Positions 17,924 to 64,000 of a DNA stretch of 64,000 nt are shown piece after piece (positions within the stretch are counted from its first letter, which is position 1; each line of letters begins with the position of its first letter). A program made the position numbers and the translations under genes. The notes under the pieces are model-generated. The model was given only the letters and a program-made list of their open reading frames with translations, was not told where the DNA came from and searched no databases. Source of the stretch: a virus; IMG/VR virus record IMGVR_UViG_3300031857_000110; one strand, written 5' to 3'.

Positions 17924-17940
17924 CAGTAGTTAAACTGTCA
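17921..17940 (+). repeat. inverted repeat TGACAGT-agttaa-ACTGTCA at tyrS stop
   Basis: Perfect 7-bp arms; no T-tract. Confidence 0.4.
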
Positions 17941-18349
17941 CTATGGAATACACACACTTCACTTCAGTTTGCTAAGATGAAAAAGAAACTTGGAGATTCC
18001 CCATGTTTAAAAGTAAGTTCTTTCCTTTAATTCTTTATCTTAGTTTACTCTTTATTGGAATTTCTTTTCCCTTTGCTATTCTAATGATTTATCCAGTATC
18101 GCCCACTCACAAAATTTTTTATGAATTCTGACAACTTTATTTTATGTTATTGTGTTACTCTTCTTTTTGGTTTCGTGGGGTTTGTTAGTTATGGTACTAT
18201 TAAAAATCAACCAGAATCTCTATATAGAGAAACTTTTAATAGATCTATTTCTTGTCGTGAAACTATAGGACTAAAACAAATAACAAATTTAGACTATATT
18301 TGTGGCAAACTTCCTCAAATCTCCGAATTCCATACACCTTCTAAATAAA

Positions 18350-19969: not shown

Positions 19970-20734
19970 ATGAAATCTGAACTATTTCAATTTGCTGAAG
20001 TTGGTGGAGCTGTTCGGGATTCTTTTCTCGGAGTTCCTTCAAAAGATATAGACTTTGTTGCAATCCCAAATAATACAAATGATTGGAATTATGCAGATGA
20101 GGCTTTTACTAATTTAGTACAGGAATTATTTCATCTAGGATTCAAAGGATTTGATAGTAATAGTGGGAACTTCATTCTAAAGCCTGAATTTTTCACTGCT
20201 AGAGTGCAAGTCCCTAAAGAGAACCCTCTTCATCAACGTACAGTTGTGGCAGATTTTGTTCTATCACGTAAAGATGGACCAAGTTCTGATGGACGTAGAC
20301 CCGATTATGTTCTACCTGGAACTTTGCTTGATGATCTTAAGCGTAGAGATTTTACCATTAATGCAATGGCAGTCTTAGACGGCGAATTGGTAGATTATTT
20401 CGGCGGTCAAAAAGATCTAGAGGATCGCTTAATTCGCTTTGTTGGAGATCCACACGAAAGAATTGCAGAAGATGGTTTAAGAGTTATGAGAGCTTTAAGA
20501 TTTGTAATCACTAAAGATTTTATGCTCCATCCAGAGACCTATGATGCTATTAATTGCAGTTTAGGTGCACAGATGTTGACAAAAGTTTCTATTGAACGTA
20601 TTAGAGAAGAGCTGGAGAAAATGTTCACCTCAAATACATTGAAAACGATTTCTATTCTCAGTGGCCTTAAAGCTGATCTTCAAGAAGCAATTTTTAGAGA
20701 TGGTTTGCGTCTGATGCCGTCTTTGAAGCATTAG
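19970..20734 (+). CDS. cca: tRNA nucleotidyltransferase (CCA-adding enzyme or poly(A) polymerase head domain)
   Basis: GGAVRDSFLG...DIDF motif of class II tRNA nucleotidyltransferases; RDFTINA motif. Confidence 0.75.
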   Translation: MKSELFQFAEVGGAVRDSFLGVPSKDIDFVAIPNNTNDWNYADEAFTNLVQELFHLGFKGFDSNSGNFILKPEFFTARVQVPKENPLHQRTVVADFVLSRKDGPSSDGRRPDYVLPGTLLDDLKRRDFTINAMAVLDGELVDYFGGQKDLEDRLIRFVGDPHERIAEDGLRVMRALRFVITKDFMLHPETYDAINCSLGAQMLTKVSIERIREELEKMFTSNTLKTISILSGLKADLQEAIFRDGLRLMPSLKH

Positions 20735-21053
20735 ATTGTGACAGATTAAAATGTGTCACCGCAAGAACCCAAACCGAGTTCCCTTGCCATATGATAATAG
20801 AGCATTAAACAAACCCTCATGCCTTTCTAGTCAATGCTTGTAAGAATTATTGGAACTGCAATTGGAGTGTCTCTCTTACTTTTCATTCTTCTCTTGAGGG
20901 GACTTCCGGTTCTGTTTCTTCTTAAAATGATTCCTCTAGGAATTCTACTTTTTGTTGCTATTGCATTCATTTATGCTGGCGTAGCAAAAGATAGCTGATC
21001 AAAATCTCTGATCTTACTGTTTAACTTACCCATTCACTTCACCCTTTTTAACT

Positions 21054-23018: not shown

Positions 23019-23114
23019 ATGGAGAAAAAATTCAATCGGAAAAAGAATGAAACTAAAGGACACTTTATGGAGAAAAAATTCAATCGGAAAAAGAATGAAA
23101 CTAAAGGACACTTT
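23019..23114 (+). repeat. perfect 48-bp tandem duplication (x2)
   Basis: atggagaaaaaattcaatcggaaaaagaatgaaactaaaggacacttt repeated twice; in frame on + strand it encodes MEKKFNRKKNETKGHF twice. Confidence 0.9.
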
Positions 23115-23194
23115 AATGACTGACACATTGATCTGAGGTGTAGTGAGCCAGGTGATATGCTGAACTTGTTCAACACACAACGTTAAAAACCCTA

Positions 23195-23746
23195 ATGAAA
23201 ATTGACCTTTCACATTATGTCAGAAAAACTGTAAAAGTTAGATATGCCAATGGCAATGAAGCATTTGGTATAATTACAGTAAGACAATATCTACCTAGTA
23301 AATTTCTTCAATATAGACTTGTAGATAAAAACCAAAATAGAATTACAGATCATTACGCTTCTGGTAAGTGTTACTATTTTACAGAAAGTTATGACATTGT
23401 ACAAATTGAACCTATAACTACTGAAAAAACTATGGATAAACTAGATCTTATGAGCAATTTCTTTAATGCCAAAGATGCACACAAATTGTCAAGTCTTAGT
23501 GATCCAAATCAACTATTAAAAATAATTCTTGCAGAAATAGAGGAAGTAGCAAGGAATGGAAAATGGAAATATATTACTCGTTCTTATGGTTTTGGCGAAA
23601 GTGTTCTCTATGATATTGAAAACAATTATCCAACTAAAATTAAAGAAGTTTTGAATATGTTGCGTGATTTGGGGTTTACTGCTAAAATTGTAATACATGA
23701 AAATCAGTTTGTTGATATTTTTCTGCAGGTTACTTGGAATACATAA
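23195..23746 (+). CDS. hypothetical protein (183 aa)
   Basis: ORF. Confidence 0.5.
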   Translation: MKIDLSHYVRKTVKVRYANGNEAFGIITVRQYLPSKFLQYRLVDKNQNRITDHYASGKCYYFTESYDIVQIEPITTEKTMDKLDLMSNFFNAKDAHKLSSLSDPNQLLKIILAEIEEVARNGKWKYITRSYGFGESVLYDIENNYPTKIKEVLNMLRDLGFTAKIVIHENQFVDIFLQVTWNT

Positions 23747-24143
23747 AAAACTTCTATCATTGTCAAAAAATGCGCAGCCGGAACGGAGAATAAAGTGAAG
23801 GACACTTTAACGACTGGCACACACCCATACACTTTGACAAGCGTGCTCCTGCTATGATGAATCTGTTCAGCCAACAAATCTCTAATGATTGGAACAAAGG
23901 TTAGCACAGACTTAGTTGCACGAGTCCAAATTGAAAGGTTTGTAATTTCTATGGATGACCTTAAAGAGTATATGAGAAAAAAATTTAGTGCTGGTGGTTG
24001 GTATGATGTTGAGTTTCGGATCAATATCTTCTCCCCAGATTCATTAATAATTATATCACGGAAAAGAATAGTTAAGGTGTAAAAGAACATATAGATCTTG
24101 TTAATTCTGTCTGCAATCCCCACTTCTCATTTATCTAAACAAA

Positions 24144-27408: not shown

Positions 27409-27627
27409 TCAATTATATCCATTAATCTATAATAATATTTTCACGGACACCTTTTCAACTGGCACATTATGAAAACTCTGAAAGATGTTGTTGAGCTAAA
27501 ATAAAAAAGTTCACACAAAAATCATGATTCTCTTCATTACTGTTGCAGCAATTGTGCCAGAATCAATCGCATATTCTTTAATTCTTTTTAATCTCCCTCT
27601 TGTTTGAAAAATTATTCATAACAAACA

Positions 27628-28866
27628 ATGGAACTCCGACTGCAACAAAAAAAGGCCATTGAAGTTCTTTCTCAGGCAAATAGAGGAATTATTGCAATGG
27701 CTCCAGGCTCAGGGAAAACTCTCATTCAAATTCATGATTCAAAAAGAATTTTTGAACAATCTGAAGAACCACAGACTGTTGTAGTTGTAGCGCCAAGAAT
27801 ACTTCTTGCTTCGCAGTTATCTTTTGATTATGGAAAGCACATTAATTGTGCTAAGTATCTCCATGTTCACTCAAAAATTGGAAAGGTAAATCATTATCAT
27901 ACAACAGATAAAGAAAATATCAGACAATGGTGTGAAATTCATAAGGAGCACCATAAACTAATTTTTACCACCTATCATTCACTCAAAAAGATTTATAAAT
28001 CAGGGATTACGGTAAATACATATATGTTTGATGAATCACATAATTCAACATCTGCTGGGTTTCATGAATATGTGAAAAAGGTAAGTGATAATAATCAAAG
28101 ATGCTTCCATTTTAGTGGTACACCTAGATTTAGCAGGGCACCTAAAAATCCGAAAAAGACAAAAAAACCTGGAATGAATGATCCAGTTTATGGTGAAATT
28201 ATAGTAAAAGCCACAGCAGCAGAAATGATTAAGCATGGTTATATCTTAAAGCCAAGGGTCATTTCTCATTATCTTGAATGGGTTGAAGAGAGAACTGCAC
28301 AACATGATGCAACAGATATCTTAAATATCATTAAGACATACAATCTTTCTAAACTTCTTATAAACGTAAGAAAAACATCAAATATGATGGAAATGCTTTC
28401 AGAGACAAATTTTCAAGAGTCTTTGAGAGAACTTGGCTATGATTTATTACATATTACTTCAAATTATGGTCCAGTGTATAATGGTAAAAAAATTAAAAGG
28501 GACAGATTTTTCCAACTCTTAGATAAGCTTGGTGAATCTATGGATAAAAAATATGTCATTTTAAATTATTCAATTTTAGGTGAAGGAATAAACATTAAAT
28601 CATTAGATGCTGTACTCTTACTAAGGCAACTAAATCTAATAAAACTTATTCAAACTATAGGGCGAGCAATCAGACTCTCTTCTGAGGATCAAAGGGCTAT
28701 TGATAATGGAAGCTTAAAGGCATGTGATTATATGAATTATCTTAAACCTGAAGGTTTAGTAATTATACCTGTTTATGATAAAAGACTTTTAGAGCAATCT
28801 AAAAGTATTACAACCACTGTTGAAGATGTCTATGAAAAGGGAGAACTCCCAATTATGCAAGTTTAA
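27628..28866 (+). CDS. SF2 DExH-box helicase (ResIII-like)
   Basis: Motif I APGSGKT, motif II DESH, motif III SGTP, motif VI QTIGRAIR. Confidence 0.7.
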   Translation: MELRLQQKKAIEVLSQANRGIIAMAPGSGKTLIQIHDSKRIFEQSEEPQTVVVVAPRILLASQLSFDYGKHINCAKYLHVHSKIGKVNHYHTTDKENIRQWCEIHKEHHKLIFTTYHSLKKIYKSGITVNTYMFDESHNSTSAGFHEYVKKVSDNNQRCFHFSGTPRFSRAPKNPKKTKKPGMNDPVYGEIIVKATAAEMIKHGYILKPRVISHYLEWVEERTAQHDATDILNIIKTYNLSKLLINVRKTSNMMEMLSETNFQESLRELGYDLLHITSNYGPVYNGKKIKRDRFFQLLDKLGESMDKKYVILNYSILGEGINIKSLDAVLLLRQLNLIKLIQTIGRAIRLSSEDQRAIDNGSLKACDYMNYLKPEGLVIIPVYDKRLLEQSKSITTTVEDVYEKGELPIMQV

Positions 28867-28870
28867 ACTC

Positions 28871-29230
28871 ATGAAAATCTCTTCAACACATCAACAATTT
28901 GCAAATGATTTAAAAGACCAAACTGCTCTAGAATACCCTGAACGTTTTCTAGGACCCAATTGGAAGAATGTCCTGAACTTCTGGATTTACTTGGATACTT
29001 TGAATGATGAAGAGAGTGAGTTAATTAATAAGCGTTATTGGGCTTCAGAAGATTTAATGAATTTAACAAATCTTTCTTTTAAAACTGCTGAAGCTATTAT
29101 AGGGCATGAAAATGCATCTGTAGCTTGGAGTGTCACTCCTTCATTTTCATCTGCTTGTGCAACCTGTGAACTCATTGGCTCACATAATCTAGAGTCTTTT
29201 AAGTTTCTTCCATTGTTTCTAAATATGTGA
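28871..29230 (+). CDS. family-A member 5
   Basis: Conserved blocks; start trimmed to MKISSTHQQ. Confidence 0.7.
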   Translation: MKISSTHQQFANDLKDQTALEYPERFLGPNWKNVLNFWIYLDTLNDEESELINKRYWASEDLMNLTNLSFKTAEAIIGHENASVAWSVTPSFSSACATCELIGSHNLESFKFLPLFLNM

Positions 29231-29303
29231 CACTTTAAAAACTGCCCACCTGCACACAACAACATGATAGATTTTGCTATGATTACTGTGAATTTAAGAA
29301 CCG

Positions 29304-29816
29304 ATGAACATTTTTGCAACCTCTTTTTGTCCAGAACAGTCTGCAATTGTTCTCCCAGATTTACATATTAAAAAGATGCCAATTGAATGCTGTCAAATGC
29401 TTGCTTATGTTGCATCTCCTTGGATTCACAATTACGGAACTATTCCTAAAAAAGATGGAACACCATACATGACAAAAAGAAACAGCCCTCGCCTTAAACA
29501 TCCATGTACGCTATGGGTAGCAGAATCTATTCATAATGCTCATTGGCTAATTTATCATGGGTTTATGTTGTGCGAGGAATATTTTAGACGTTATGAAAAA
29601 CAAATTGCATGTTATGGATCTCTTTTAAATGCTCTAGAAATATTTCCTGATGGTGACTTTAATAAGATTACACCATTTATTAGAGCTATGCCTGATCATT
29701 TGAAGTTTGATAAGACAATTGACACATTTACAGCCTATAAAAAATATCTTGCATCAAAATCATGGGCAGCAAACAATTATAAAAAACTTCCATCCCGCAA
29801 ACCAAATTGGATTTAA
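29304..29816 (+). CDS. hypothetical protein; weak resemblance to pyrimidine-dimer DNA glycosylase (DenV/Pyr_excise) family
   Basis: N-terminal start pattern and NAHWLIYHGFMLCEEYFRRYEK versus family block GHVLFFYDKGLYLQKRYDE, both recalled from memory; weak. Confidence 0.3.
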   Translation: MNIFATSFCPEQSAIVLPDLHIKKMPIECCQMLAYVASPWIHNYGTIPKKDGTPYMTKRNSPRLKHPCTLWVAESIHNAHWLIYHGFMLCEEYFRRYEKQIACYGSLLNALEIFPDGDFNKITPFIRAMPDHLKFDKTIDTFTAYKKYLASKSWAANNYKKLPSRKPNWI

Positions 29817-30783: not shown

Positions 30784-31290
30784 ATGAAAATATATACTGG
30801 TATTGGAAGCCGTTCAACACCTGAACACATCATAACATTAATTCATGGAATTTCAAAAAAGTTGAATGAACAAGGATTTTTATTGAGATCTGGTGGAGCT
30901 AATGGGGCAGACTCGGCATTTGAGAAATTCTCAACAAATAGAGAAATCTATTTACCTTGGGATGGATTTAATAGAAGAACACATGATGGATCATCTTATT
31001 TTGAGTTTTTGAAGTGCCCTGCGTGGACCACAGCAACTTCTAGTGTTAATACTTTTCATCCATATCATGAAAAACTTTCATCATCTGCTAGACTTCTAAT
31101 GGCTCGCAATTTTATGCAAATTATGGGCGCAGACGGTAAGACTCCCACCAATTTTGTGATATGTTGGACTAAAGAGGGAAAAGATATTGGAGGAACTTCA
31201 CAGGCACTGAGAATCGCAAGACATGAAAATATTCCTGTTCTCAATTTGGGGAATCTTAAGATAGAAAGACACTTTACAAACTGGCTGTAA
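30784..31290 (+). CDS. DprA/Smf-like SLOG-domain protein
   Basis: GIGSRSTPE and LRSGGANGADSAFEKF resemble the DprA Rossmann-like signature; small (168 aa). Confidence 0.5.
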   Translation: MKIYTGIGSRSTPEHIITLIHGISKKLNEQGFLLRSGGANGADSAFEKFSTNREIYLPWDGFNRRTHDGSSYFEFLKCPAWTTATSSVNTFHPYHEKLSSSARLLMARNFMQIMGADGKTPTNFVICWTKEGKDIGGTSQALRIARHENIPVLNLGNLKIERHFTNWL

Positions 31291-31346: not shown

Positions 31347-32054
31347 ATGGATCTCATTCCAGTTTCTTCGGGCAGATTTGATTCATTTAGGTATCATAAT
31401 GAAACTTTCTATAGATTGAGATTTCAAGATGGTGCTAAATGGTATCGTTATCAATCATCGTTGGAAAGTTTTAAAGAGTTATTATGTGAATATATTTTAA
31501 TCTCAAAGTTAGAAGAAGAATATTCTCTTTTTATACGCCCAATTAAAAAACTCACCGAAAACAAGTCTGAACTTAATACAGAAGAAGTTTTCAATTTTGT
31601 GGTTGATGCAATTAAAAATAGAACCAATTATACAAGCTTCAATCAGCAGCCAAATAGTACCAATAAATTAATTGTAGAAAGTAACTCTAAATGCTCATCT
31701 CTCTATATCTGCAGTAAACGAGATGCATATCTGAATAGAAATACTGTGGCAGCATTTTATGATGACCATTGTATAGTGTTTCCATTAGAGAATGTCATCA
31801 GGGTAAATTTAAAGAAATTATATGGATTGTTGTTCTTATTTTTACACCGAGAATATTCAATTCAACTCTATCATTATAGAGAAAATAAAAATGGTTATAC
31901 CCAACAAATTTGGAGACATAAAATTAACCCATCTGCGAATAAAAATGAGAAGATGTTTAGAAATTTTGATGAACCAATTACAATACTTTTTCGTAAAATC
32001 ATTAATGATAATGATGACAATTTTACAAATTCCAATCATAAAACTGTCCACTAG
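31347..32054 (+). CDS. hypothetical protein
   Basis: ORF. Confidence 0.45.
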   Translation: MDLIPVSSGRFDSFRYHNETFYRLRFQDGAKWYRYQSSLESFKELLCEYILISKLEEEYSLFIRPIKKLTENKSELNTEEVFNFVVDAIKNRTNYTSFNQQPNSTNKLIVESNSKCSSLYICSKRDAYLNRNTVAAFYDDHCIVFPLENVIRVNLKKLYGLLFLFLHREYSIQLYHYRENKNGYTQQIWRHKINPSANKNEKMFRNFDEPITILFRKIINDNDDNFTNSNHKTVH

Positions 32055-32688: not shown

Positions 32689-34233
32689 ATGTCACTTAAA
32701 ATTTCCGAAAAAGCTAATCTTAATTATCTTGCAAAAGTTGTAAAACTAACAAATCTTAGAAAGCATCCAAATGCAGATAAATTACAGATAACCACTATTG
32801 ATGGAAATAATATCATTACTGGCTTAGATGCTAAGGATGGTGATCTTTATGTGTATTTTTCTCTTGAAAGTTCAATCAATTTGAATTATATTTCATTTTC
32901 AAATGGATTTAGGGAAAGCTCTTTAAATACTAATAAAGAAGTTGTTGGATTTTTTGAACCAAGAGGTAGAGTGCGGGCGATCTCTCTTCGGGGTGAAAAA
33001 TCATGTGGATATATTTGTCCAGTAAAAAATATCAATGAATGGCTTAATACCTTTACGTCTTTCAATATTACTGAAGAACATCAAGATGTAGAATTTGATA
33101 TGATTTGTGATACGGTAATGTGCGAAAAATATATAAATCGTGAAGCACTTCTTAAAATCTTAAAGGCCAATAAAACTCCAAAGGGTATTAAAAAATTAGC
33201 AAAAGAAACAAAGCTAATTGAAGGTCAATTCGCATTTCATGTTGATACTGCACATCTTCAAAAATATATCTATAAAATCAATCCGCATGATATCATTCAT
33301 ATTTCCAAAAAGCTTCATGGAACTTCTGCTATTGTTGGAAATATTTTGTGTAAGCGTAAATTATCGCTTAAAGATTCCATTGCAAGATTTTTTGGGGTAA
33401 ATGTAAATGAAACAGAATATCAATTGATTTGGTCTTCTAGAACAGTTGTAAAGAATGGCAACTATTATTTGTCTTGGCAAGAAACCCTCTGGAAAAATTT
33501 TCTATATTATCTCAGCAGTTACAAAAAACCATTTGAATCTTGGGTATCCTTGATTTTAGCTGAAGGTGACCAGAAAAGAGAAGAATTTTTTGGTGATTTG
33601 CAATATCATAGATCAACTCCTTTGCAACTCTATAAAGATTTGCAAGAGTGGAGTAAAATTATCAAAAATCCACAAACATCTAATCATTATTATTCATATG
33701 ATATTTGGAGGGATGTTGCTATCCAGCTTGAAGATTTTCTTTATAAAGGAATGACATTTTATTGTGAAGTTGTTGGTTATACAAAGGAAGGAGCATATCT
33801 TCAAAAGGGTTATGACTATGGTTGCGATCTAGGAAACTTTGCAATTTACATCTATCGCATCACATATACAAATCCTTCAGGGAAGATATTTGAATTTTCA
33901 ACTCAGCAAGTGAAGGCATATTGCAATAAACTTGGCCTAAACATGGTCCCAGAACTTTATTATGGGAGAGCAAAAGACCTATTTGACATTCCTGTAGATG
34001 ATAATTGGCATGATAATTTTATTGAATTAGTTAGCCAGAATTATCTTGAAAAGGATTGTGACATGTGTGTAAATAAAGTTCCAGATGAAGGTATTGTACT
34101 CCGTAAGGAAGATATTGACATTGAACCATACAAATATATAAGTTTTGCATTTAAACTGCGAGAAACAAAAAATGCAGATAATGGCGAAATTGATCTAGAA
34201 ACAATTGAATCTGAACAGTTAGGTGATGCATAA
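32689..34233 (+). CDS. RNA ligase (Rnl2-like nucleotidyltransferase) with N-terminal tRNA-binding OB (EMAP/Myf-like) domain
   Basis: N-terminus LRKHPNADKLQITTIDGNNIITGLDAKDGDLYV matches the tRNA-binding domain signature; motif I KLHGTS, motif IV EGIVLRKE, motif V FKL. Confidence 0.65.
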   Translation: MSLKISEKANLNYLAKVVKLTNLRKHPNADKLQITTIDGNNIITGLDAKDGDLYVYFSLESSINLNYISFSNGFRESSLNTNKEVVGFFEPRGRVRAISLRGEKSCGYICPVKNINEWLNTFTSFNITEEHQDVEFDMICDTVMCEKYINREALLKILKANKTPKGIKKLAKETKLIEGQFAFHVDTAHLQKYIYKINPHDIIHISKKLHGTSAIVGNILCKRKLSLKDSIARFFGVNVNETEYQLIWSSRTVVKNGNYYLSWQETLWKNFLYYLSSYKKPFESWVSLILAEGDQKREEFFGDLQYHRSTPLQLYKDLQEWSKIIKNPQTSNHYYSYDIWRDVAIQLEDFLYKGMTFYCEVVGYTKEGAYLQKGYDYGCDLGNFAIYIYRITYTNPSGKIFEFSTQQVKAYCNKLGLNMVPELYYGRAKDLFDIPVDDNWHDNFIELVSQNYLEKDCDMCVNKVPDEGIVLRKEDIDIEPYKYISFAFKLRETKNADNGEIDLETIESEQLGDA

Positions 34234-34995: not shown

Positions 34996-35450
34996 AACAT
35001 CTTCCATCTCTGCTTATTTTATGTGGACTTCCTGGTTCAGGTAAGAGCACTTATTGTAAACAATATTCAAATTCAAATTTTGTAAGACTTTCATCAGATG
35101 ATTATATTGAAAAAGTGGCAAGAGACCAAGGAAAAACATACAATGAAGTTTTTTCATATGCAATTAGAGATGCTGATAGATATTTTAAACAAAAATTAGA
35201 CTATTATGCAGACACTGAATATAACATAATTATTGATAGAACAAATCTTACTGTAAAAACTAGAAGAAAGATTATCAACAAATTTAAAAATCATCAAAAG
35301 ATGATTGTATTTTTTAATGTGCCATTAAATACCATAAAAGAAAGAAACATCAGGCCTGGAAAAATATTTTCTGAAGAAATGTTAGATGATATGTATAGTA
35401 GATTGGAAATACCAACAGAACTTGAAGCTCAAGTTGTGACAGTTAGCTAA
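34992..35450 (+). CDS. P-loop polynucleotide 5'-kinase (T4 Pnk kinase-domain-like)
   Basis: Walker A GLPGSGKST and IIDRTNL (compare T4 Pnk IISDTNL). Confidence 0.65.
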   Translation: MKHLPSLLILCGLPGSGKSTYCKQYSNSNFVRLSSDDYIEKVARDQGKTYNEVFSYAIRDADRYFKQKLDYYADTEYNIIIDRTNLTVKTRRKIINKFKNHQKMIVFFNVPLNTIKERNIRPGKIFSEEMLDDMYSRLEIPTELEAQVVTVS

Positions 35451-35501
35451 CTGTCCAAAGGTGACAGACTACAAAGGTACTCAATGTTATGATATGTATT
35501 A

Positions 35502-36206
35502 TTGATTCGGAAACTAATGAATTGCGTTCTTGTTGGGGACATTCATTCTCAATTTTCAAAACTTCAAAATGCTCTTAATTACATTGAAAATACTATTGAG
35601 GATTATTATATCATATTTTTAGGAGATGCATTTGATTCAAGATGTGAAGAATCAAATTCTGTTGGAGTCTACAAAACAATTAAAAATTTACAAGATAAAA
35701 ACAAAGCAACTCTCATTCATTCAAATCATCAATGGAAACTTCAACGATATCTTTATGGAAATCCTGTAAGAATTGATCAATCTCTACAGAGAACTCTTGA
35801 TGATTTTCAGAGTTCAGATGTTACATCTATTGAACTTTTAACTTGGCTTGAGTCTTTACCATTTGCTTGTGCATTTAAAGATATTAATGAACAAGAATAT
35901 CGCTGCGCCCATGCATATCATAGTTCTAAGCTTCTTATTCCTAGAACTTATGATGGCATACATTGTACTTATAAAGTAAGTGCAAAAATGCGAGATAAAT
36001 TGATTTATGGTGCATTATATGAGGGAACCCGGCTGTCATGGTGGGAACATGAATCAACAAATGAATGGATTCGGGTTTCTGGACATTATCATACTGTTGA
36101 AATCTCATATACAAAAAAAGCATTGGTATTGGATTCATGTTGCGGGGATGAAAATGGTCTTCTCTCTGTTTTTAATGTAAACACATGGGAGATTTTTCAA
36201 TTTTGA
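35502..36206 (+). CDS. calcineurin-like metallophosphoesterase (candidate 2',3'-phosphatase, bacterial Pnkp-like)
   Basis: GDIHS, GDAFDSR, SNHQ motifs. Confidence 0.6.
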   Translation: MIRKLMNCVLVGDIHSQFSKLQNALNYIENTIEDYYIIFLGDAFDSRCEESNSVGVYKTIKNLQDKNKATLIHSNHQWKLQRYLYGNPVRIDQSLQRTLDDFQSSDVTSIELLTWLESLPFACAFKDINEQEYRCAHAYHSSKLLIPRTYDGIHCTYKVSAKMRDKLIYGALYEGTRLSWWEHESTNEWIRVSGHYHTVEISYTKKALVLDSCCGDENGLLSVFNVNTWEIFQF

Positions 36207-55695: not shown

Positions 55696-56180
55696 AAAGT
55701 TTTCACCAACAACTGGCAACATTCAAAGCTCTTGACAAACAAAAAAGAGAGAATCCTTTTCGTAAGGAATGGATAAATTCACAGTCTCTCCATTATACAG
55801 AAAGATGGAAAAAAGAAGCTGATATTATTAAAAGGTATGTTGAATTATCACGAGGAAAGTTTCCTGATTTTGTTCTAGAGAATTTTTATTGCTTAAAATA
55901 TATGATAACAGGGGAAGCTTTTAATCTTGGCTGGGGTTTTGAATGTAATAATGTAATTTATTGGAAAGATACAAAAAGAGAGATAATGGCTGAATGGATG
56001 GATAGATATAATCACACATGCGATTATCTAGGACCAATTAAAAGAGTAACCATGCTGGAAAGTATGCTGTATAATAGATTCAATTTTATAGGGCCAATTG
56101 AACGAAAAATCTTGCATGAAAGTATGCGGAGTGACTCATATGGAATTCTAATGCCTCAAGGTCTTGACAAAAGCACTTGA
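55692..56180 (+). CDS. hypothetical protein; 3' end contains the next promoter
   Basis: ORF. Confidence 0.45.
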   Translation: MKSFHQQLATFKALDKQKRENPFRKEWINSQSLHYTERWKKEADIIKRYVELSRGKFPDFVLENFYCLKYMITGEAFNLGWGFECNNVIYWKDTKREIMAEWMDRYNHTCDYLGPIKRVTMLESMLYNRFNFIGPIERKILHESMRSDSYGILMPQGLDKST

Positions 56181-56219
56181 GACATTCTAGTATAAACAAG
56201 TAATCCACAGAGGGTTCCC

Positions 56220-56726
56220 ATGGCTCCTATTCACTTCCACCGCGACAATAATTTGAAAGAAGTAATTGTTGCAACAAATAAAATCAATAAAGTATGTAAT
56301 ATTATTCAACCGCAGATCATAGAAACTTTAAGACCTTTCAGGGGCAAAAAAATAATTAAGGTAACTCCTTATCGTACTCTAACGAGTAAAGTTTTTGAAG
56401 TTCTCAATCCAGTTTTAGAAGAATACCGAAAAACAATGGGAGGTATGTATATCTTGGATTATCAATCTAATTATAGTCTGTCTTTGAAAGTTCAGGTGCC
56501 GTATAAATTGCATTATGATGATGGGGGGTTTCAAGGCAGTTTGTCTCATTTTCTTTATTTGGGTTTTTTGGAAAACAGTACTTACCTTAAGGACGAAGAT
56601 CTAAAGTTATGTAAGAGTAAGGAAGATTATGATTTTGATGAAATTAAGTTGAAAATGGTGCAGCTTAAACAGTTGGAAGAACAATTTGATGCATTAAAGA
56701 GTGAATTATCGCGCTTCTTGCGATAA
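56220..56726 (+). CDS. hypothetical protein
   Basis: ORF behind promoter 56164 with GAGGGTTCCC leader. Confidence 0.5.
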   Translation: MAPIHFHRDNNLKEVIVATNKINKVCNIIQPQIIETLRPFRGKKIIKVTPYRTLTSKVFEVLNPVLEEYRKTMGGMYILDYQSNYSLSLKVQVPYKLHYDDGGFQGSLSHFLYLGFLENSTYLKDEDLKLCKSKEDYDFDEIKLKMVQLKQLEEQFDALKSELSRFLR

Positions 56727-56751: not shown

Positions 56752-56816
56752 TTGCTAGTCTTACTGGGGATTTTTTGTGTTTAATGTTTTAATGTGACAC
56801 TTTAAGAACTGGCACA
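56752..56816 (+). repeat. about 65-nt reiterated element GCTAGTCTTACTGGGGATTTTTTGTG(T/C)TTAATGTTTTAATGTGACACTTTAAGAACTGGCACA, copy 1 (second copy at 57907..57971)
   Basis: Near-identical copies read directly. Confidence 0.85.
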
Positions 56817-56881
56817 TTCTTAACCACCTTTCCGCCCTTACCTGCTGTAGGATAAACAAGCAAACAAAGGGAGGTTCCCCC

Positions 56882-57508
56882 GTGACTACACAATCTGAAG
56901 TTAATGCTGCAATTGCAGCATTGTATATTTCCGATGAATTTGATGATAAAAAGGTTACTAAATCTCTAAACTCTCGTATAAAAAGAGAATGGTTATCATT
57001 CAAAGCTTCTGCTATAAATATAGGTTTTGACCCTGAAAAACATAGAACATTTACGCTAGATAAATCTAAAGAAGACTTATGGGGTTATGTTGCACATGAC
57101 TGGATAATGATTCGTAATTTGGGATTTTTAGACGGCCATTGGCAAAAAGATAAGGCAGAGAAATTAGCAGAAATTGCAAAATCTTTTGGCCGGTTGGAAG
57201 TATTTCAACAGGGTGATTATATCTTTCCACGTTCAGATGAGTATATCAATAAGATTGCAACTTACTGCTTTCTTAAGTATAAAGAAGTGTCACACTCACA
57301 TTTGAATAAAGATGGTTATGGTAAGACTTCATCGCCATATATGATTAAGTTACCCGAGATTGATAATCAATGGAGGAGAATATATTCTTTATGCTATTCT
57401 AATACATCAACCGAAATCATTACAATAAAAGGTGAAACATTATTATTGGGGAATCTATTATCGGATTTTTGTATAGCAGTTGGAGATACAGTTAAGATTA
57501 ATTTGTAG
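56882..57508 (+). CDS. hypothetical protein, family B (GTG start)
   Basis: Paralog of 53891..54541. Confidence 0.6.
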   Translation: MTTQSEVNAAIAALYISDEFDDKKVTKSLNSRIKREWLSFKASAINIGFDPEKHRTFTLDKSKEDLWGYVAHDWIMIRNLGFLDGHWQKDKAEKLAEIAKSFGRLEVFQQGDYIFPRSDEYINKIATYCFLKYKEVSHSHLNKDGYGKTSSPYMIKLPEIDNQWRRIYSLCYSNTSTEIITIKGETLLLGNLLSDFCIAVGDTVKINL

Positions 57509-57603
57509 GTATAACAAGCTCTCATAAGAGATGCTAATGCCTTAAGGGTTGACAGATCCCCTTAAGACATTCTAGTATAAACAAGTAATCCACAGAGGTT
57601 TTT

Positions 57604-57906
57604 ATGCACTCCCAACATCCAGCAATTATTGAATGTTTGAATAGTTTCAATTTTGAAAATGTTCACAAAATAATGGTACTTCTAGATTGGAAATATGCTA
57701 TGCCTGCACCACCATATTATGCTGAGGTTCCTAATATAGAACGGCTGAAGGAATGCGCAGAATATCTATTGCGTCTATCTGTGCAGCATAGATGTGATTG
57801 GAGTAGTGGTGGATTTGAAGCGAAATATATTGTCGGGTGGGATGGTTTTGTTAAGCTTCGCTTATGCTTCGTGGCAGTTGATTGTCAGGTGAATTGTAAA
57901 GAATAA
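57604..57906 (+). CDS. hypothetical protein
   Basis: ORF. Confidence 0.45.
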   Translation: MHSQHPAIIECLNSFNFENVHKIMVLLDWKYAMPAPPYYAEVPNIERLKECAEYLLRLSVQHRCDWSSGGFEAKYIVGWDGFVKLRLCFVAVDCQVNCKE

Positions 57907-58031
57907 GCTAGTCTTACTGGGGATTTTTTGTGCTTAATGTTTTAATGTGACACTTTAAGAACTGGCACAGTCTAGAGAACCATCCAGCCCTTAGCTGCTT
58001 TATGATATGGAGGTATTCATCCAGGTATTTC

Positions 58032-58328
58032 ATGGCTACGCCAGCATTCAAAACAAAAAAAGGTGACCTTACAGCTTATGCCTTGGCTTGTGGATATATT
58101 GAAAAGGTGGAAATTGGAGATGATATAATAGTTCTGCAAGCTTTGGATTGCCCTAATGTATATCTCGTTTCGTTGTGGGAAGGTAAATATAATTCCCATG
58201 ATAAAGATTATCGCTTGCTAACTGATGCACGAAGAGAGTTTAAGAAGCTCGTCTCTATGAAAAAACGTGCTGACACTTTAAGAACTGGCACGTTCTCAAC
58301 CACCTTTCCGCCCTTAGCTGCTGTATGA
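58032..58328 (+). CDS. hypothetical protein (start uncertain; C-terminal codons run through a reiterated leader)
   Basis: ORF. Confidence 0.35.
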   Translation: MATPAFKTKKGDLTAYALACGYIEKVEIGDDIIVLQALDCPNVYLVSLWEGKYNSHDKDYRLLTDARREFKKLVSMKKRADTLRTGTFSTTFPPLAAV

Positions 58329-58358
58329 TGACAAGGTAAACAAAGGGAGGTTCCCACC

Positions 58359-58874
58359 ATGCCCATCACAATCTATGAATTCGGTGAATTGTCAGATGAA
58401 GCAAAAAGCATTGCATTAAATACCTTTCGTTATATCAATGTTGACTGTAACTGGCATGAAACTGTATGCGAAGATGCAGAAGTAATCGGATTAAAGATTA
58501 CAGAATTTGATATTGATAGAAATACCATAAAGGGACATTTGAAACAAGATTTTTTGGATGTATGTAGGCTAATAAGAAAAAATCACGGTAAAGATACGGA
58601 AACAAGAGACACCGCCAAAAAGTATCTTAAAGAATATATTGCAGAATACTATCGTTATAGGGGCAATGATACACAAAATTTACCAGATTTGCTGAAAGGC
58701 TTCCAATGTGAAGATGAAGCAAAGGATATAGAGATAGATTTTGCCCTCGCACTTTTGGAGGATTATTTCATCATGTTGAGAAGAGAATATGAATATCTCA
58801 CATCTGATGAAGCAGTTAAAGAATCAATTGAATTAAATGAGATGAAATTTCTAGAGAATGGTAATGTGACATAA
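58359..58874 (+). CDS. hypothetical protein
   Basis: AAGGGAGGTTCCCACC leader. Confidence 0.5.
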   Translation: MPITIYEFGELSDEAKSIALNTFRYINVDCNWHETVCEDAEVIGLKITEFDIDRNTIKGHLKQDFLDVCRLIRKNHGKDTETRDTAKKYLKEYIAEYYRYRGNDTQNLPDLLKGFQCEDEAKDIEIDFALALLEDYFIMLRREYEYLTSDEAVKESIELNEMKFLENGNVT

Positions 58875-58954
58875 GCAGTGCTTATCAATAAAGGCTTGAC
58901 AATCCATATTCTTACCTGTAGTATTCTTTCATCCACATCAGGGAGGTTCCCACT

Positions 58955-59497
58955 ATGTCTCAAATTCGTCTCACCGGCCTTGATCTATTGAAGCATCATA
59001 AAAGTCAACATGAAACAAGGCACTTAAAGGTGATGTTTGCTGGATATATTAAAGATGGATTTAAGCCATCATATACAGAATACTATTCAGCATTACTTCC
59101 ACTAATGTTATGGAATAAAAAGTATGAAAATACAATGAACAATGGAGGTTCTAAAATTGTTCAAAGTCTAGTGACACATCTGGTGGCGGGTGCAGATTAT
59201 CAGAAAGAAAATGATCGGGTGTGTTATTTGAGTAATGGTGATGCTGCTATTTACTATTATGGGCAGTTAATATGCATTGTAAATTTTAATAATAATTATA
59301 TAACGATTCAGCCCAATTTAATGAGAACAAAATCCACAAAAGAACGTTTGAATAGAATTTTGATGAAATTCACTGGATGTCAACTATTTCAAAAAGAAAA
59401 GAAGTGGTATGTTTATGATCCAGAAAGAGATCAAGATAGTTTAGTGCCTGAGGGAGCTTGCTTCAGAGTAGATTTTATCGGCTCCTGTCCAGAATAG
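58955..59497 (+). CDS. hypothetical protein, family C
   Basis: Paralog of 47936..48400. Confidence 0.5.
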   Translation: MSQIRLTGLDLLKHHKSQHETRHLKVMFAGYIKDGFKPSYTEYYSALLPLMLWNKKYENTMNNGGSKIVQSLVTHLVAGADYQKENDRVCYLSNGDAAIYYYGQLICIVNFNNNYITIQPNLMRTKSTKERLNRILMKFTGCQLFQKEKKWYVYDPERDQDSLVPEGACFRVDFIGSCPE

Positions 59498-59587
59498 GAC
59501 ATAAGAGATACTAATGCCTTAAGTGATTGACAGATCCCCTTAAGGCATTCTAAGATAATCAAGTAAACCAAGGGAGGTTCCCCAATC

Positions 59588-60004
59588 ATGGCTCAAACTT
59601 TCAACAATTGGTCTGAAGTTCCTGCATCAATTGAAGCAAAGATCCGAAAAATTTGGAATGGTGACGGAGCTTCAACATACGAAAAAAGTCATGATGAAAA
59701 CGGTGAAGAAATTACAGTCTATAAATTATCAGACTACAAAGTGATTTTCAATACTGATTTTTTGACCGATGCTCAGAAAATTAAATTCTTTGAGTTGGCA
59801 TGGACCTATAGATTAAATCTTGCAGACTTTCTGCATAATTTAACATTTGAACCTGAATGTGTAAGGATATATGATGAAGTATATCATATCCCCGGAATTG
59901 TTGTAGGAACCTGGCCACATTGCAACCTATATGGTGGGATGGATGAAAACGGACATATTCATACTCAATTATGGTTCAGCTTTCTTAAATCTTATCAGAG
60001 CTAA
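59588..60004 (+). CDS. hypothetical protein
   Basis: Promoter plus leader. Confidence 0.5.
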   Translation: MAQTFNNWSEVPASIEAKIRKIWNGDGASTYEKSHDENGEEITVYKLSDYKVIFNTDFLTDAQKIKFFELAWTYRLNLADFLHNLTFEPECVRIYDEVYHIPGIVVGTWPHCNLYGGMDENGHIHTQLWFSFLKSYQS

Positions 60005-60106
60005 AAACATGTAGGCCTATAAGAGATACTAATACCTTAAGGTCTTGACAAAAGCCCTTAAGGTATTTTAGTATAATCAAGTAAACACATCAGGGAGGTT
60101 CCCACC

Positions 60107-60439
60107 ATGATTGATTCTTTATATCAAGATGGAGAGATTAGATTTTTGAGGCATTTTTCTACAAGAGGAGGTAGATATATTTCAAATAGGCTAAATCTAA
60201 AGGGAAAAAATGCAGAAAAAATTAGCAATAGTCTGTCAGGTTTCTTCTGGAATTTACATGCTGCAATTGTGGTTAAAAATTTGAATGAAATGAAAGCCAA
60301 TAAAATTACTAATCCATATGTAAATGGCTGCAAAATGATATATGAAGAAATTCTTGAGAATCCGCAATATATGTTTCTTCCAAAATGGGTTAAGGACGAT
60401 TTAGTTATTGCTGGTAAATTTTTGAGTTACGAAAAATAA
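60107..60439 (+). CDS. hypothetical protein
   Basis: Promoter plus leader. Confidence 0.5.
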   Translation: MIDSLYQDGEIRFLRHFSTRGGRYISNRLNLKGKNAEKISNSLSGFFWNLHAAIVVKNLNEMKANKITNPYVNGCKMIYEEILENPQYMFLPKWVKDDLVIAGKFLSYEK

Positions 60440-60547
60440 GACAATCTTCCATCTCTAGGGTGACACTTTAAGAACCGGCACACCCTAGAGAACCTTCTGG
60501 CCCTTAGCTGCTGTAAAATAAGCAAGTAAACCACAAGGGAGGTTCCT

Positions 60548-60889
60548 TTGACTGCAACAATCTATCAACAATTACTTGAGCACTCTAAAGGTTTAATAGA
60601 GATTCATGAAACTGATTTAACCATTCACGATCAAAACAGAATAAAGACATTTGAGCCAGGTTCAAAATGGTTATGGGTTTGTTATCAGTGTGGAACATAT
60701 TTAACAAAATGGGAGAGTAAATTCACATCAGAACTTTTATATTATATCGTGGAGAGGAATGGCTGTCCAGATTGCAAAGTCTTCATCATTGAATGTAATG
60801 AAGAATTAAATGGAAATGTTATAGAGAAACAAGCAGCAGAATTGTGGATTCAAAAGAAATATGAGAATTCCTTATCAATAAAGGCTTGA
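60548..60889 (+). CDS. zinc-ribbon protein (CYQCG...CPDCK), TTG start
   Basis: Leader AAGGGAGGTTCC then TTG. Confidence 0.4.
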   Translation: MTATIYQQLLEHSKGLIEIHETDLTIHDQNRIKTFEPGSKWLWVCYQCGTYLTKWESKFTSELLYYIVERNGCPDCKVFIIECNEELNGNVIEKQAAELWIQKKYENSLSIKA

Positions 60890-60941
60890 CAAACCATACT
60901 CTTACCTGTAGTATTCTTTCACTCACATCAGAGAGGTTCTC

Positions 60942-61346
60942 ATGTTTTTAGGTAAACATCAAAAAGGTCTCATTACTTATCTCGTAAAACGGAAAAATTA
61001 CACTGGCATTTGTGGCCAAGATATGAGAGATGTTCTTAATAGGCTAGTAAAAAGAGGTATAATTAAGTATAAAAAAATTGAGTATAATTATGGAACATAT
61101 GAATATGAAGTAACATTAACTATTCCAGATATTCATTACATTACATCTGAAGAAGCTAATAATATGAATAGTTTTCAGCGATATAAAGAGCTTAGGGGTG
61201 AACCTTATAGAGAAGGATTCTTTTTTATTACAAACCCACAATTACTTTCTAATAAGACACATTATTCACGACAACATGAAGAATTTGGACCATTCTCTAG
61301 TATAGAAGAAGCTGTTGTATTTTATGCAAGTAATAGAAAATTTTAA
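60942..61346 (+). CDS. hypothetical protein
   Basis: Promoter 60886 plus leader. Confidence 0.5.
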   Translation: MFLGKHQKGLITYLVKRKNYTGICGQDMRDVLNRLVKRGIIKYKKIEYNYGTYEYEVTLTIPDIHYITSEEANNMNSFQRYKELRGEPYREGFFFITNPQLLSNKTHYSRQHEEFGPFSSIEEAVVFYASNRKF

Positions 61347-61530
61347 TAAAATGTGTTTTTAATCGTTTTTATTGATAATCATTCTCAATAAGGTGTTTTA
61401 AGTGTTTTATTGATCTTATTGATAATCATTCTCAATAAGGTGTTTTAAGTATATTGAAGGTCTTAAATGTTTTATTGATAATCATTCTCAATAAGGTATT
61501 TTAGGTATTTTAGGTATTTTAAGTGTCTTA
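61347..61530. repeat. three copies of an iteron-like palindrome TTATTGATAATCATTCTCAATAAGGT(G/A)TTTTA(A/G)GT plus GGTATTTTA tandem units
   Basis: Perfect inverted repeat TTATTGA/TCAATAA inside each of 3 direct repeats; followed at 61538..61639 by the distant inverted repeat ATCTTAGCGG ... CCGCTAAGAT. Confidence 0.85.
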
Positions 61531-61658
61531 TTGGTCTGATGATCTTAGCGGACTAGGACCACACACTCTAAGACACTCAAGGACAGAAGAAAAACCGGCA
61601 CAATAAAACCCACAGAACGATCATAACCGCTAAGATGTAAAAGTCATTCAATCATTCC

Positions 61659-61874
61659 ATGGCCACCCACAACATTTTTCCAGCCTACAAAGGGCTAGTT
61701 AAAGTGTCCAAACTGCGCAAAAAGATTGGCCAACAAAGATATACAATCTCAGCAAAAATCACCCCAGACTTTACATTTGAAACAATAATTCCAGCATATA
61801 ACAGAGAGGATGCAATTTTCCGTGCTACAGCATACTTTCCAAATGGAAGATTCGTCAAAGTGAATAACAAATGA
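61659..61874 (+). CDS. hypothetical protein
   Basis: ORF. Confidence 0.4.
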   Translation: MATHNIFPAYKGLVKVSKLRKKIGQQRYTISAKITPDFTFETIIPAYNREDAIFRATAYFPNGRFVKVNNK

Positions 61875-61962
61875 GACTGTGACACTTTAAGAACTGGCAT
61901 GTTCTCAACCACCTTTCCGCCTTTAGCTGTAGGATATGGAGGCAAACAAAGGGAGGTTTCCC

Positions 61963-62184
61963 GTGAAATTGATCAGTAATCACGAGGATAACATTAAAAG
62001 GGAGCTTTATACAATTGAAAATAATGGGGATAAATTTACACTCATTTGGTATGTTAATCCAACTACAAAAACAATTATTGATGTTGAACTGAGAGATGCA
62101 TCCGGGGTATCTGTTTTTGATCCTGCCTTACTTGAGGAGATTGAAACCTTTGTAGTTGATACACTTATTGAACGTCAATCTTAA
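61963..62184 (+). CDS. hypothetical protein (GTG start after GGGAGGTTTCCC leader)
   Basis: Leader homology. Confidence 0.4.
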   Translation: MKLISNHEDNIKRELYTIENNGDKFTLIWYVNPTTKTIIDVELRDASGVSVFDPALLEEIETFVVDTLIERQS

Positions 62185-62648: not shown

Positions 62649-62756
62649 GTCTTATAGGTATATTAAGCTCTCATAAGAGATGCTAATGCCTTAAGTGATT
62701 GACAGATCCCCTTAAGGCATTCTAGTATAGTCAAGTAAACCAAAGGGAGGTTCCCC

Positions 62757-62927
62757 ATGGCTAAAGAAAGTTTCAGGGAAAAGATCATCGGCTTGGCTAT
62801 AGGTTGTGATTATACACATGATGACTCCTGCGCAACATGGGAATCAATAGCACGGGAGCTGATTGCTCAGATGAGCGAACAAGATTGCCAGGATTTCTAT
62901 GATTATTTCATGGACAATTGCATGTAA
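62757..62927 (+). CDS. small protein (56 aa, below ORF-track cutoff) starting MAKES like its upstream neighbour
   Basis: Promoter 62699 plus leader AAAGGGAGGTTCCCC then ATG. Confidence 0.4.
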   Translation: MAKESFREKIIGLAIGCDYTHDDSCATWESIARELIAQMSEQDCQDFYDYFMDNCM

Positions 62928-63784: not shown

Positions 63785-64000
63785 ATGCGCAAAATTGAAG
63801 AAAAGATGATTGATGCAATCAATTATCGCAAAAATTGGTCTTGCGATAACACAATGGTTGAGATTTTTGATAATGAAATTATCGTCAAATTACATTTTCA
63901 CCCCATCGCTAGAATTAATAAAAATAGCATTAAACTTTCATCGTTTGGTTATGAAACAAGAACCACAAAATCTAGACTTAATGCTATTCTTAGTCACTTT
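63785..64000 (+). CDS. family C paralog, 3'-truncated by window end
   Basis: Promoter 63727; FGYETRTTKSRLNAILSHF similar to the family C block. Confidence 0.4.
   Translation, partial: MRKIEEKMIDAINYRKNWSCDNTMVEIFDNEIIVKLHFHPIARINKNSIKLSSFGYETRTTKSRLNAILSHF

Follow-up and report, generated by a model that had tools for sequence, protein, structure and literature searches.

A stretch of 64,000 nucleotides from the IMG/VR virus record IMGVR_UViG_3300031857_000110 (hereafter the window) carries, between positions 56,752 and 61,962, a region of small genes in which a 22-mer, GTGACACTTTAAGAACTGGCAC, is repeated. It occurs five times on the + strand with zero or one mismatch (copies 1 to 5 in Table 1) and has no match in 100 dinucleotide-preserving shuffles of the window. 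The five near-identical copies reported in a preliminary description, which had been made from the letters alone, are thus a real feature. This element is the subject of the present analysis, and we predict it to be an upstream operator of early promoters that is widespread in cyanophages and belongs to the regulator-dependent promoter or promoter-cassette kind.

When sites from different phages are compared, the element resolves into a 22-bp dyad with the consensus GTG[A/C]CA[C/G]TT-N4-AA[C/G]TG[G/T]CAC, that is, two half-sites around a variable centre. A relaxed form of this pattern has 13 matches in the window against 0.36 expected, and a weight matrix derived from the sites of other phages finds 12 window sites, compared with none or one in shuffles. 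All of them lie on the gene strand, all genes of the window being on the + strand. The degenerate versions noted earlier at 23806, 27447, 29226 and 40857 were recovered within a few nucleotides of these positions (Table 1). A fifth, placed at 23085, does exist, but direct reading locates it elsewhere, as the weak dyad AGGACACTTTAATGACTGACAC. Beyond that list, further degenerate sites are found at 17920, 20738, 31266 (weak), 35436 and 47653.

The sequence around the five copies is also shared in part. A downstream box, CAACCACCTTTCCGCCCTTAGCTGCTGT, is found without mismatch at 58297 and with two mismatches at 56821; four of the five copies retain its 3' half, GCCCTTAGCTGCTGTA, and copy 5 carries a 3-nt deletion there. 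The leader AAGGGAGGTT (unit end AAACAAAGGGAGGTTCCC) and start codon that had been described follow in four of the five copies, while copy 2 has a different leader. Two copies had further been said to share a full unit with a T-tract. The T-tract is indeed shared, but the common stretch (56754-56854 and 57907-58007, repeat family D10) extends over 101 nt at 88% identity, and both arms of the hairpin ahead of the T-tract are kept only in the first of the two. This identity points to a recent duplication of the whole cassette. At its upstream end, segment 56754-56793 completes a hairpin with a T-run and likely forms the terminator of gene 56220-56726.

The 6-kb region has no blastn match among GenBank phages, and searches of Pfam and PHROGs gave no function for the genes downstream of the five copies. 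However, a 2044-aa open reading frame (ORF) encodes a tail-fibre protein that shares about 50% identity with its counterparts in T4-like myoviruses of Synechococcus and Prochlorococcus, and neighbouring contigs contain the Kyanoviridae-specific families Kyano_Gp96, DUF7717, DUF7326, DUF7249 and DUF6267. On these similarities we place the window phage among the T4-like cyanophages (Kyanoviridae), with relatives in freshwater metagenomes.

Geometry of the dyad and the predicted promoter

Each of the 12 weight-matrix sites has TAnGAT or TAAAAT 29-32 nt to its right in the direction of the gene, and none has it to the left; the window hexamers found after dyads are TAGGAT, TATGAT, TAAGAT or TAAAAT. 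A repeat finder aligned the motif unit GCTGTAGGATAAACAAGCAAACAAAGGGAGGTTCCCC (segment GCTGTAGGATAAAC...GGGAGGTTCCC, family D18) with ATTCTAGTATAAACAAGTAATCCACAGAGGGTTCCCA, the -10 and leader of the consensus TTGACA-N17/18-TAGTATAAT cassettes of the same phage, which puts the hexamer of the motif unit where a -10 would stand with respect to the ribosome-binding site. By this alignment, what had been called a conserved downstream leader would be mostly an untranscribed spacer ending in a -10 hexamer, and the predicted true leader, which carries the ribosome-binding site, measures about 22 nt (21-23). Counted from the predicted start, the dyad spans about -64 to -43 with its centre at about -54.

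The same geometry is found outside the window. Of 139 non-redundant instances, 118 are accompanied by a -10-like hexamer 29-33 nt away on one or both sides (right only in 29, left only in 51, both in 38), compared with 7% of control windows, so that the dyad takes a fixed position upstream of -35, as upstream activators of the class I type do. Aligned on the hexamer, 156 site-promoters from IMG/VR loci display the dyad, TAtaaT followed by A, and a very weak -35 (TTnnAn, at most 0.26 bits). At positions 12-13 from the start of the hexamer stands (A/G)T, the T occurring in 101 of the 156, presumably a conserved initiation dinucleotide at the expected start.

The region between dyad and -10 hexamer is unusual in the five copies. 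Their -35 slot, which begins 8-9 bp past the dyad, holds CACCTT or similar and is not TTGACA-like. A two-hexamer sigma70 scan detected none of the five motif units; the TTGACA cassettes that it did detect in this part of the window lie at 56164, 57549, 58896, 59527, 60045 and 60886. A sigma70-type -10 (TAnnnT) is therefore present in the five copies, and a TTGACA -35 at 16-18 nt upstream of it is absent. The preliminary statement that the motif does not fit sigma70 is right for the 22-mer alone, which is no -35/-10 promoter, but misplaced in that the 22-mer is not the promoter core and is followed by a sigma70-like -10. Its exclusion of sigma54 stands: TGGCAC is present, but the next element is TTAAC, TAGAG or TCAAC and not the TTGC of the sigma54 consensus TGGCAC-N5-TTGC, with its GG at -24 and GC at -12. 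To our knowledge, cyanobacteria have no sigma54.

The preliminary description had also considered an RNA processing or structure element and had proposed a covariance analysis of the leader. An RNA element in 5' or 3' untranslated regions, be it a structure, a processing site or a protein-binding hairpin, would suit the near-palindromic form of the 22-mer, the flanks that extend the stem to 9-10 bp around copy 4 and at one IMG/VR locus, the hairpin with T-run that follows the motif in some contigs, and the fact that KTSC, the domain of the candidate reader discussed below, has been called RNA-binding. The extended stems are exceptions, however. Of 227 sites, only 38 have complementary bases at positions 7 and 16, where 88 would be expected, and the bases at positions 4 and 19 change almost independently of each other. 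When the five units were folded jointly with RNAalifold, the energy was -4.7 kcal/mol and the covariation term -0.32; no Rfam family matched the motif region. The motif sits, moreover, upstream of the predicted start site, and it is used in both orientations relative to genes at the same distance from the -10. Indeed, in MED4-213 (78556) and in P-HM2 (39293) a single dyad, flanked on either side by a -10 at 31-32 nt, serves two divergent units, both of which belong to the Early (A) class in P-HM2. We therefore regard an RNA element as extremely improbable. Use in either orientation, the avoided 7/16 pairing and the lack of covariation and of an Rfam family together predict a DNA site, and we consider it likely that the motif is a protein-binding site on double-stranded DNA, a 22-bp dyad that forms the upstream half of a bipartite early-promoter cassette.

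Antitermination of the boxA/nut type, for which CACTTTAAGAA with its resemblance to rrn boxA had been entertained, was rejected, the site being orientation-independent and upstream of the -10. We also observed that CCTTTCC, found in the spacer of three copies (56826-56832 and its equivalents), shows complementarity to GGGAGG, the ribosome-binding site some 40 nt further on; since it lies upstream of the predicted start, it would be relevant only in read-through transcripts.

Table 1. Dyad sites, predicted -10 hexamers and associated genes in the window
Feature	Position	Strand	Details
Dyad copy 1, perfect GTGACACTTTAAGAACTGGCAC	56794-56815	+	Weight matrix 31.1 bits
Predicted -10 TAGGAT of copy 1	56848-56853	+	32 nt past dyad
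Unit of copy 1		+	Predicted start about 56860; Shine-Dalgarno sequence GGGAGG about 56870; GTG start 56882 (gene 56882-57508)
Dyad copy 2, perfect	57947-57968	+	Motif search, weight matrix
Predicted -10 TATGAT of copy 2	58001-58006	+	Serves small gene ending 58328, likely start ATG 58033
Dyad copy 3 (CTGACAC...)	58270-58291	+	Overlaps 3' end of ORF 58002-58328
Predicted -10 TATGAT of copy 3	58324-58329	+	Gene 58359-58874
Dyad copy 4 (one C for T)	60460-60481	+	Flanked by 10-bp inverted repeat CTCTAGGGTG/CACCCTAGAG
Predicted -10 TAAAAT of copy 4	60514-60519	+	Gene 60548-60889
Dyad copy 5 (last base T)	61879-61900	+	Motif search, weight matrix
Predicted -10 TAGGAT of copy 5	61930-61935	+	Spacer 29 nt owing to the 3-nt deletion; gene 61963-62184
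Upstream part of duplicated cassette, GCTAGTCTTACTGGGGATTTTTTGTG(T/C)TTAATGTTTTAAT	56754-56793	+	Repeated at 57907-57946 without the 5' arm
Dyad GTGACAGTAGTTAAACTGTCAC	17920-17941	+	27.6 bits; overlaps stop of tyrosyl-tRNA synthetase gene; TAAGAT 17973; small ORF from 18003
Dyad	20738-20759	+	20.0 bits; TATGAT 20790
Weak dyad AGGACACTTTAATGACTGACAC	23105-23126	+	TATGCT 29 nt downstream; gene 23195-23746
Dyad	23799-23820	+	17.1 bits; TATGAT 23853
Dyad	27444-27465	+	14.0 bits; TAAAAT 27497; upstream of SNF2-type helicase gene 27628-28866
Dyad	29227-29248	+	16.1 bits; TATGAT 29278; gene 29304-29816
Weak dyad	31266-31287	+	8.9 bits; TATGGT 31318; gene 31347-32054
Dyad	35436-35457	+	16.4 bits; TATGAT 35488; gene 35502-36206
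Dyad	40855-40876	+	14.3 bits; TATGAT 40907; directly upstream of KTSC-like gene
KTSC-fold protein gene (68 aa)	40958-41161	+	Candidate dyad reader
Dyad	47653-47674	+	14.7 bits; TAAGAT 47705
tRNA/RNA-repair set: tRNA-Leu(UAA), tyrosyl-tRNA synthetase, two RNA ligase-like genes, CCA-adding enzyme	2291-2374, 16775-17923, 19424-19960, 19970-20734, 32689-34233

Early expression and spread among cyanophages

Published RNA-seq data are available for two phages that carry the element. In P-HM2 the Early (A) class comprises 20 genes, PHM2_056-070, 072-074, 135 and 136 (PMC5082946, S2 Table). We found 13 sites in this genome, against none in shuffles, and 11 of them have a -10; the remaining two lie inside large structural genes. 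The first gene behind a site with a -10 is Early (A) in seven cases (37627, 38152, 38255, 39293 in both directions, 39760, 125043 and 127351), Mid (B) in four, and Mid (C) or Late in none, an early enrichment with binomial P values of 6e-6 and 1e-6 when sites are treated as independent. PHM2_135 and cobS, the sole Early (A) genes outside the main block, have a site each. In the Microcystis siphovirus Mic1, the expression cluster E1 consists of gp49 and gp69-gp73 and peaks at 0.5 h before falling rapidly (PMC11237433). All 49 Mic1 sites lie within 56.8-72.1 kb, around gp69-gp73 (67.2-71.9 kb). On account of the P-HM2 Early (A) genes and the Mic1 E1 region, the element marks early promoters, neither middle nor late ones. 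The supposition that the motif is promoter-associated is borne out by the fixed -10 geometry and by the early genes downstream.

The preliminary description had gone further and suggested that a phage-modified polymerase may read the motif as a middle or late promoter; a phage-encoded polymerase or sigma factor may be added as a possible reader. The left half of the dyad recalls the SP6 promoter core GTGACACTATAGAA, and such a reading would also accommodate the missing -35 of the five copies and the four P-HM2 sites before Mid (B) genes. T4-like cyanophages, moreover, lack motA and asiA, as well as the T4 genes alt and modA/B, and reviews call their control of early and middle transcription unclear, the middle mode being left unexplained (PMC2984593). 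However, Early (A) genes follow seven of the 11 P-HM2 sites with a -10 and Mid (C) or Late genes follow none, the Mic1 sites fall in or beside the immediate-early region, and the fixed 29-33 nt to the -10 together with use in either orientation suits an upstream operator. The hexamers, TAnGAT or TATAAT, are not the T4-type late (gp55) sequence TATAAATA, which goes without an upstream element, and the conserved element at -64 to -43, with a -30 region that differs among phages, does not agree with T4 middle promoters of the MotA/AsiA type. Direct recognition by a modified polymerase is thus largely refuted by the RNA-seq classes, and we hold it to be very improbable. A promoter for a single-subunit, SP6-like polymerase was likewise rejected: the distance to the -10 is fixed, both orientations are used, and the T7-like cyanophages P-SSP7 and Syn5, which have their own single-subunit polymerase, contain no site in the first 12 kb, their early regions.

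The dyad with its predicted -10 recurs, in either orientation, in hundreds of cyanophage contigs. Thirteen IMG/VR contigs whose flanking sequences are unrelated contain the exact 20-mer, and a degenerate scan finds at least 119 loci. In GenBank phages, blastn with a 30-mer matches mainly Synechococcus and Prochlorococcus myoviruses, and Mic1 at no fewer than 21 places. The sites of Mic1 frequently form arrays with a period of 56-62 bp, and in 37 of the 49 TTGAC stands 6-10 nt from the dyad, the same position as the -35 slot of the myoviruses. An unbiased set of Kyanoviridae loci has 0.29 sites per kb. Among 120 metagenome loci with perfect-arm dyads, 77 are phage-like and 72 of these have the promoter geometry, compared with 10 of the 43 others, which are mostly terminator-like palindromes or non-bacterial-looking repeated sequence. 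Such non-phage palindromes are due to chance and unrelated to the promoter element; for example, GTGCCAGTT-N4-AACTGGCAC forms the stem of terminator-like hairpins (locus L240) or lies within a non-bacterial-looking repeat (L277, L293 and others). An exact search of 185,579 species genomes gave only two matches, one in Flavihumibacter (GC content 49%), which looks like chance, and one in a short phage-like contig of a metagenome-assembled genome. With so few matches, a tRNA fragment, attachment site or host repeat was rejected as the source of the motif.

Spread of this kind raises the question of whether the element needs a dedicated reader at all, or whether the motif is kept by copying and recombination of whole cassettes, as a mobile regulatory cassette resembling the promoter-early stem-loops (PeSLs) of T4-like phages. 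The five window copies share 50-100 nt of flank and lie amid other repeated promoter cassettes and small genes, exact 20-mers occur in different phages, and PeSLs are documented in other T4-like phages (PMC2839356, PMC4122927). The long identical flanks of the five copies do reflect recent cassette copying within a hyperplastic region of small genes. Elsewhere, however, flanks and spacer are unrelated while the 22-mer and the -10 distance are kept; the conservation takes the form of two half-sites with a variable centre; and the site is retained before orthologous genes at 35-57% protein identity. Maintenance by copying without a reader therefore appears improbable to us.

Some further observations concern the surroundings of the sites. 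Kyano_Gp96 (PF23790), which has three window paralogues (47984-48397, 58955-59494 and 63785-64000), is the family most often found beside dyad sites in other contigs (44 loci, 19 times directly downstream). In S-PM2 (20115-20280), some 150 nt containing two strong hairpins and a T-run come after the dyad, and the next annotated ORF begins at 20282; the stretch could encode a small RNA transcribed from a promoter of the site type. Within the window, dyad sites 29227 and 40855 start right at stop codons of family A, at least nine paralogous genes of about 120 aa between 16032 and 46856 with 60-100% DNA identity in blocks (repeat families D1-D5 and D9). The gene-free stretch 61347-61658 contains three tandem units of 47-56 nt (61367-61521, D19), each with the inverted repeat TTATTGATAATCATTCTCAATAA, which look like iterons or an operator array. 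A second family of sigma70 cassettes, with ATAAGnnnnnCTTATC upstream of GCTTGACA, is present in 11 copies between 43989 and 63752 (e.g. 58871-58921 and 60861-60911; D6/D7/D12). The window also encodes a tRNA/RNA-repair set (Table 1).

Candidate readers of the dyad

Which protein might read the dyad was approached through genes that accompany it. Of 215 ORF-cluster profiles from site-bearing loci, one gave a clear hidden Markov model match to Mic1, namely a KTSC-like family of 70-95 aa that matches three KTSC-annotated Mic1 paralogues inside the arrays (E 2e-6 to 8e-6); one further cluster had a marginal match to a Mic1 ATP-binding protein (E 0.002). This link is visible only in profile searches, blastp of Mic1 against the window proteins having shown only an RNA ligase in common. 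Profile-profile comparison of the KTSC-like family with KTSC gave a probability of 93.6%, and five of 20 relatives match KTSC. The window protein itself scores 23 bits on Pfam KTSC (PF13619; E 6.6e-5), below the cut-off of 25, and its structural model has a predicted local distance difference test (pLDDT) score of 94.7; from the model we assign it a predicted KTSC fold in spite of the Pfam cut-off. A homologue search with the single 68-aa protein returned two matches, and an alignment query was used instead. A related-locus search with the Mic1 KTSC found Mic1-like contigs only, and a KTSC-like gene occurs in one of 79 DUF6267-anchored loci.

The KTSC-like gene of the window lies directly behind a dyad site, a MED4-213 site drives, by its position, the KTSC-like orthologue, and of six further genomes, five have a site with a -10 at a distance of 60-197 nt ahead of their KTSC-like gene. 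In Syn9, no KTSC-like ORF is found even at E 10 and the sites are few (about five) and weak, which also speaks for the link. As to the domain, a reference in PMC11237433 stands for the KTSC family being reported as DNA-binding, and others call it DNA- or RNA-binding. Judged from these associations, the small KTSC-fold protein would be the best candidate reader, and a host cyanobacterial factor the main alternative. We tentatively propose, as a possibility that falls short of being probable, that KTSC-fold proteins read the dyad sequence-specifically and time early transcription in cyanophages, probably through feedback shut-off and possibly through activation, in place of the missing Alt, Mod, MotA and AsiA, and that they have been exchanged together with their sites between Kyanoviridae and Mic1-like siphoviruses.

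The bipartite architecture, the strict spacing, the orientation independence and the association with early genes are established by the comparisons above, and a mechanism can be sketched on them. Host RNA polymerase with the primary sigma factor would read the -10 and start about 7 nt past the hexamer at (A/G)T, so that the leader, about 22 nt long, would contain AAGGGAGGTT. A regulator bound at -54 as a dimer or as a dimer of dimers would touch the polymerase from upstream in the class I manner. At the window promoters with their empty -35 slot, this upstream contact would be expected to aid recruitment; at the TTGACA promoters of Mic1, the same contact, or an occluded upstream contact zone, could hold or block the polymerase. 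The timing data suit shut-off or feedback by a phage protein at least as well as activation: in P-HM2, expression of the early genes declines after the Mid (B) KTSC-like gene has been switched on, and in Mic1, cluster E1 collapses after its peak at 0.5 h. For a phage protein produced shortly after the early genes, shut-off or feedback would be a better fit than the role of an activator.

Several points weigh against this interpretation. Promoters without a -35 are frequent in picocyanobacteria, and an empty slot alone is no proof that an activator is needed. The -10 is itself a prediction from geometry and consensus, and in Mic1 a -10 with a good matrix score stands at the expected distance in only 21 of 49 sites. 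The link between KTSC and dyad is guilt by association and makes the protein a candidate: the binomial estimate for a site upstream of the KTSC-like gene, P of about 4e-4, comes from genomes that are syntenic and hence not independent, and sites stand before many other early-gene families with comparable frequency. PHM2_053, the KTSC-like gene of P-HM2, is Mid (B) and thus later than most site-driven genes, which are Early (A), and this argues against KTSC as an activator of early genes. Syn9 retains one or two good sites in spite of having no KTSC-like gene. Finally, going by a title cited in PMC11237433, a characterised KTSC protein binds single-stranded DNA and not a duplex dyad.

Alternatively, the dyad may be read by a transcription factor that the cyanobacterial host already contains before it is infected and that phages exploit for their first promoters, so that no phage protein is needed. 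This is a possibility that we hold with low confidence. It would account for a site common to unrelated phages, Kyanoviridae and the siphovirus Mic1, on Prochlorococcus, Synechococcus and Microcystis, and for promoters in the earliest expression classes. It would also agree with the one or two good sites of Syn9, a phage that has no KTSC-like gene. On the other hand, the exact 21-mer is found in none of the cyanobacterial genomes among the 185,579 species genomes, the promoter geometry is confined to phage-like contigs among the 120 metagenome loci, and the early regions of P-SSP7 and Syn5, phages with hosts of the same kinds, are devoid of the site. The dyad also does not match the sites known for the cyanobacterial regulators NtcA (GTA-N8-TAC), RpaB (HLR1) and LexA, or the Pho box.

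T4-like cyanophages are among the most abundant marine viruses, and how they order early and middle transcription is recognised as an unsolved problem. The dyad is strongly conserved, in myoviruses of Prochlorococcus and Synechococcus as well as in a siphovirus of Microcystis, and its sequence can be applied immediately to the annotation of early promoters in genomes and metagenomes. The dyad can also serve as bait for its regulator, for which the KTSC-fold protein offers a specific and cheap hypothesis; if true, this would assign a function to a widespread domain that has lacked one and provide a portable promoter/operator pair for cyanobacterial genetics.

Comparison with known systems

A dyad ahead of a promoter with a poor -35 has precedents. 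Late promoters of P2/P4 have a poor -35 and a dyad element (TGT-N12-ACA) near -55, at which the small zinc-finger activator Ogr/Delta contacts the polymerase from upstream. The likeness to a dyad centred at -54 is evident, but the sequence is another, the P2/P4 promoters are of the late class and of proteobacterial hosts, and no zinc-finger protein was found here. Protein p4 of phi29 also binds upstream and contacts the polymerase, activating a -35-less promoter and repressing a strong one in the switch from early to late transcription. This matches the mix of -35-less copies in the window and TTGACA copies in Mic1; the p4 sites, however, lie further upstream, differ in sequence, and p4 has no homology with KTSC. 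T4 middle promoters, in a phage of the same type, combine a -10 with a phage-specific box in place of the -35, but the MotA box, (a/t)(a/t)(a/t)TGCTTtA, sits at -30 and acts with sigma appropriation, whereas here the dyad sits at -54 and the class is early.

Among cyanobacterial regulators, NtcA has the site GTA-N8-TAC centred at -41.5. NtcA-type promoters, which also occur in cyanophages (PMC3037559), resemble the present ones in having a -10 without a -35 and an upstream dyad for a dimeric factor. In contrast, the dyad described here measures 22 bp, with GTG and CAC 16 bp apart and its centre at -54. In the literature searched, with the Syn9 transcriptome (Doron 2016) outside its scope, the dyad sequence is mentioned only in the Mic1 genome paper, where GTGCCAGTTYATAAAGTGTCAC followed by TTGACA is listed as an eightfold repeat containing a predicted promoter (PMC7156551). 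That paper treats a repeat in one phage, and does not include the dyad operator, its fixed position, its spread in Kyanoviridae or its link to early genes.

The closest concept is that of the PeSLs (Arbiol 2010, Comeau 2014; PMC2839356, PMC4122927); PMC4122927 does not mention cyanophages. In S-PM2, PeSLs were looked for, and PeSL-mediated shuffling was judged unlikely for the ORFanage region (PMC4503421). The window also contains consensus sigma70 cassettes, TTGACA-N18-TAGTATAAT (56133-56223, 57519-57601, 59496-59586, 60014-60104 and 62668-62758; D11/D14/D16), in which an inverted repeat ATGCCTTAAG...CTTAAGGCAT brackets the -35 and could be an operator or a hairpin; these are PeSL-like. The dyad units share with PeSLs that they are early-promoter cassettes repeated between small genes in hyperplastic regions, sometimes with a terminator hairpin and in near-identical copies per genome, so that repetition and location fit. 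A PeSL, however, consists of a sigma70 -35/-10 promoter and a stem-loop, and has no upstream dyad. Here, in contrast, a 22-bp dyad defines the element, the promoter of the five copies has no -35, and a complete hairpin with a T-run stands only before the copy at 56794.

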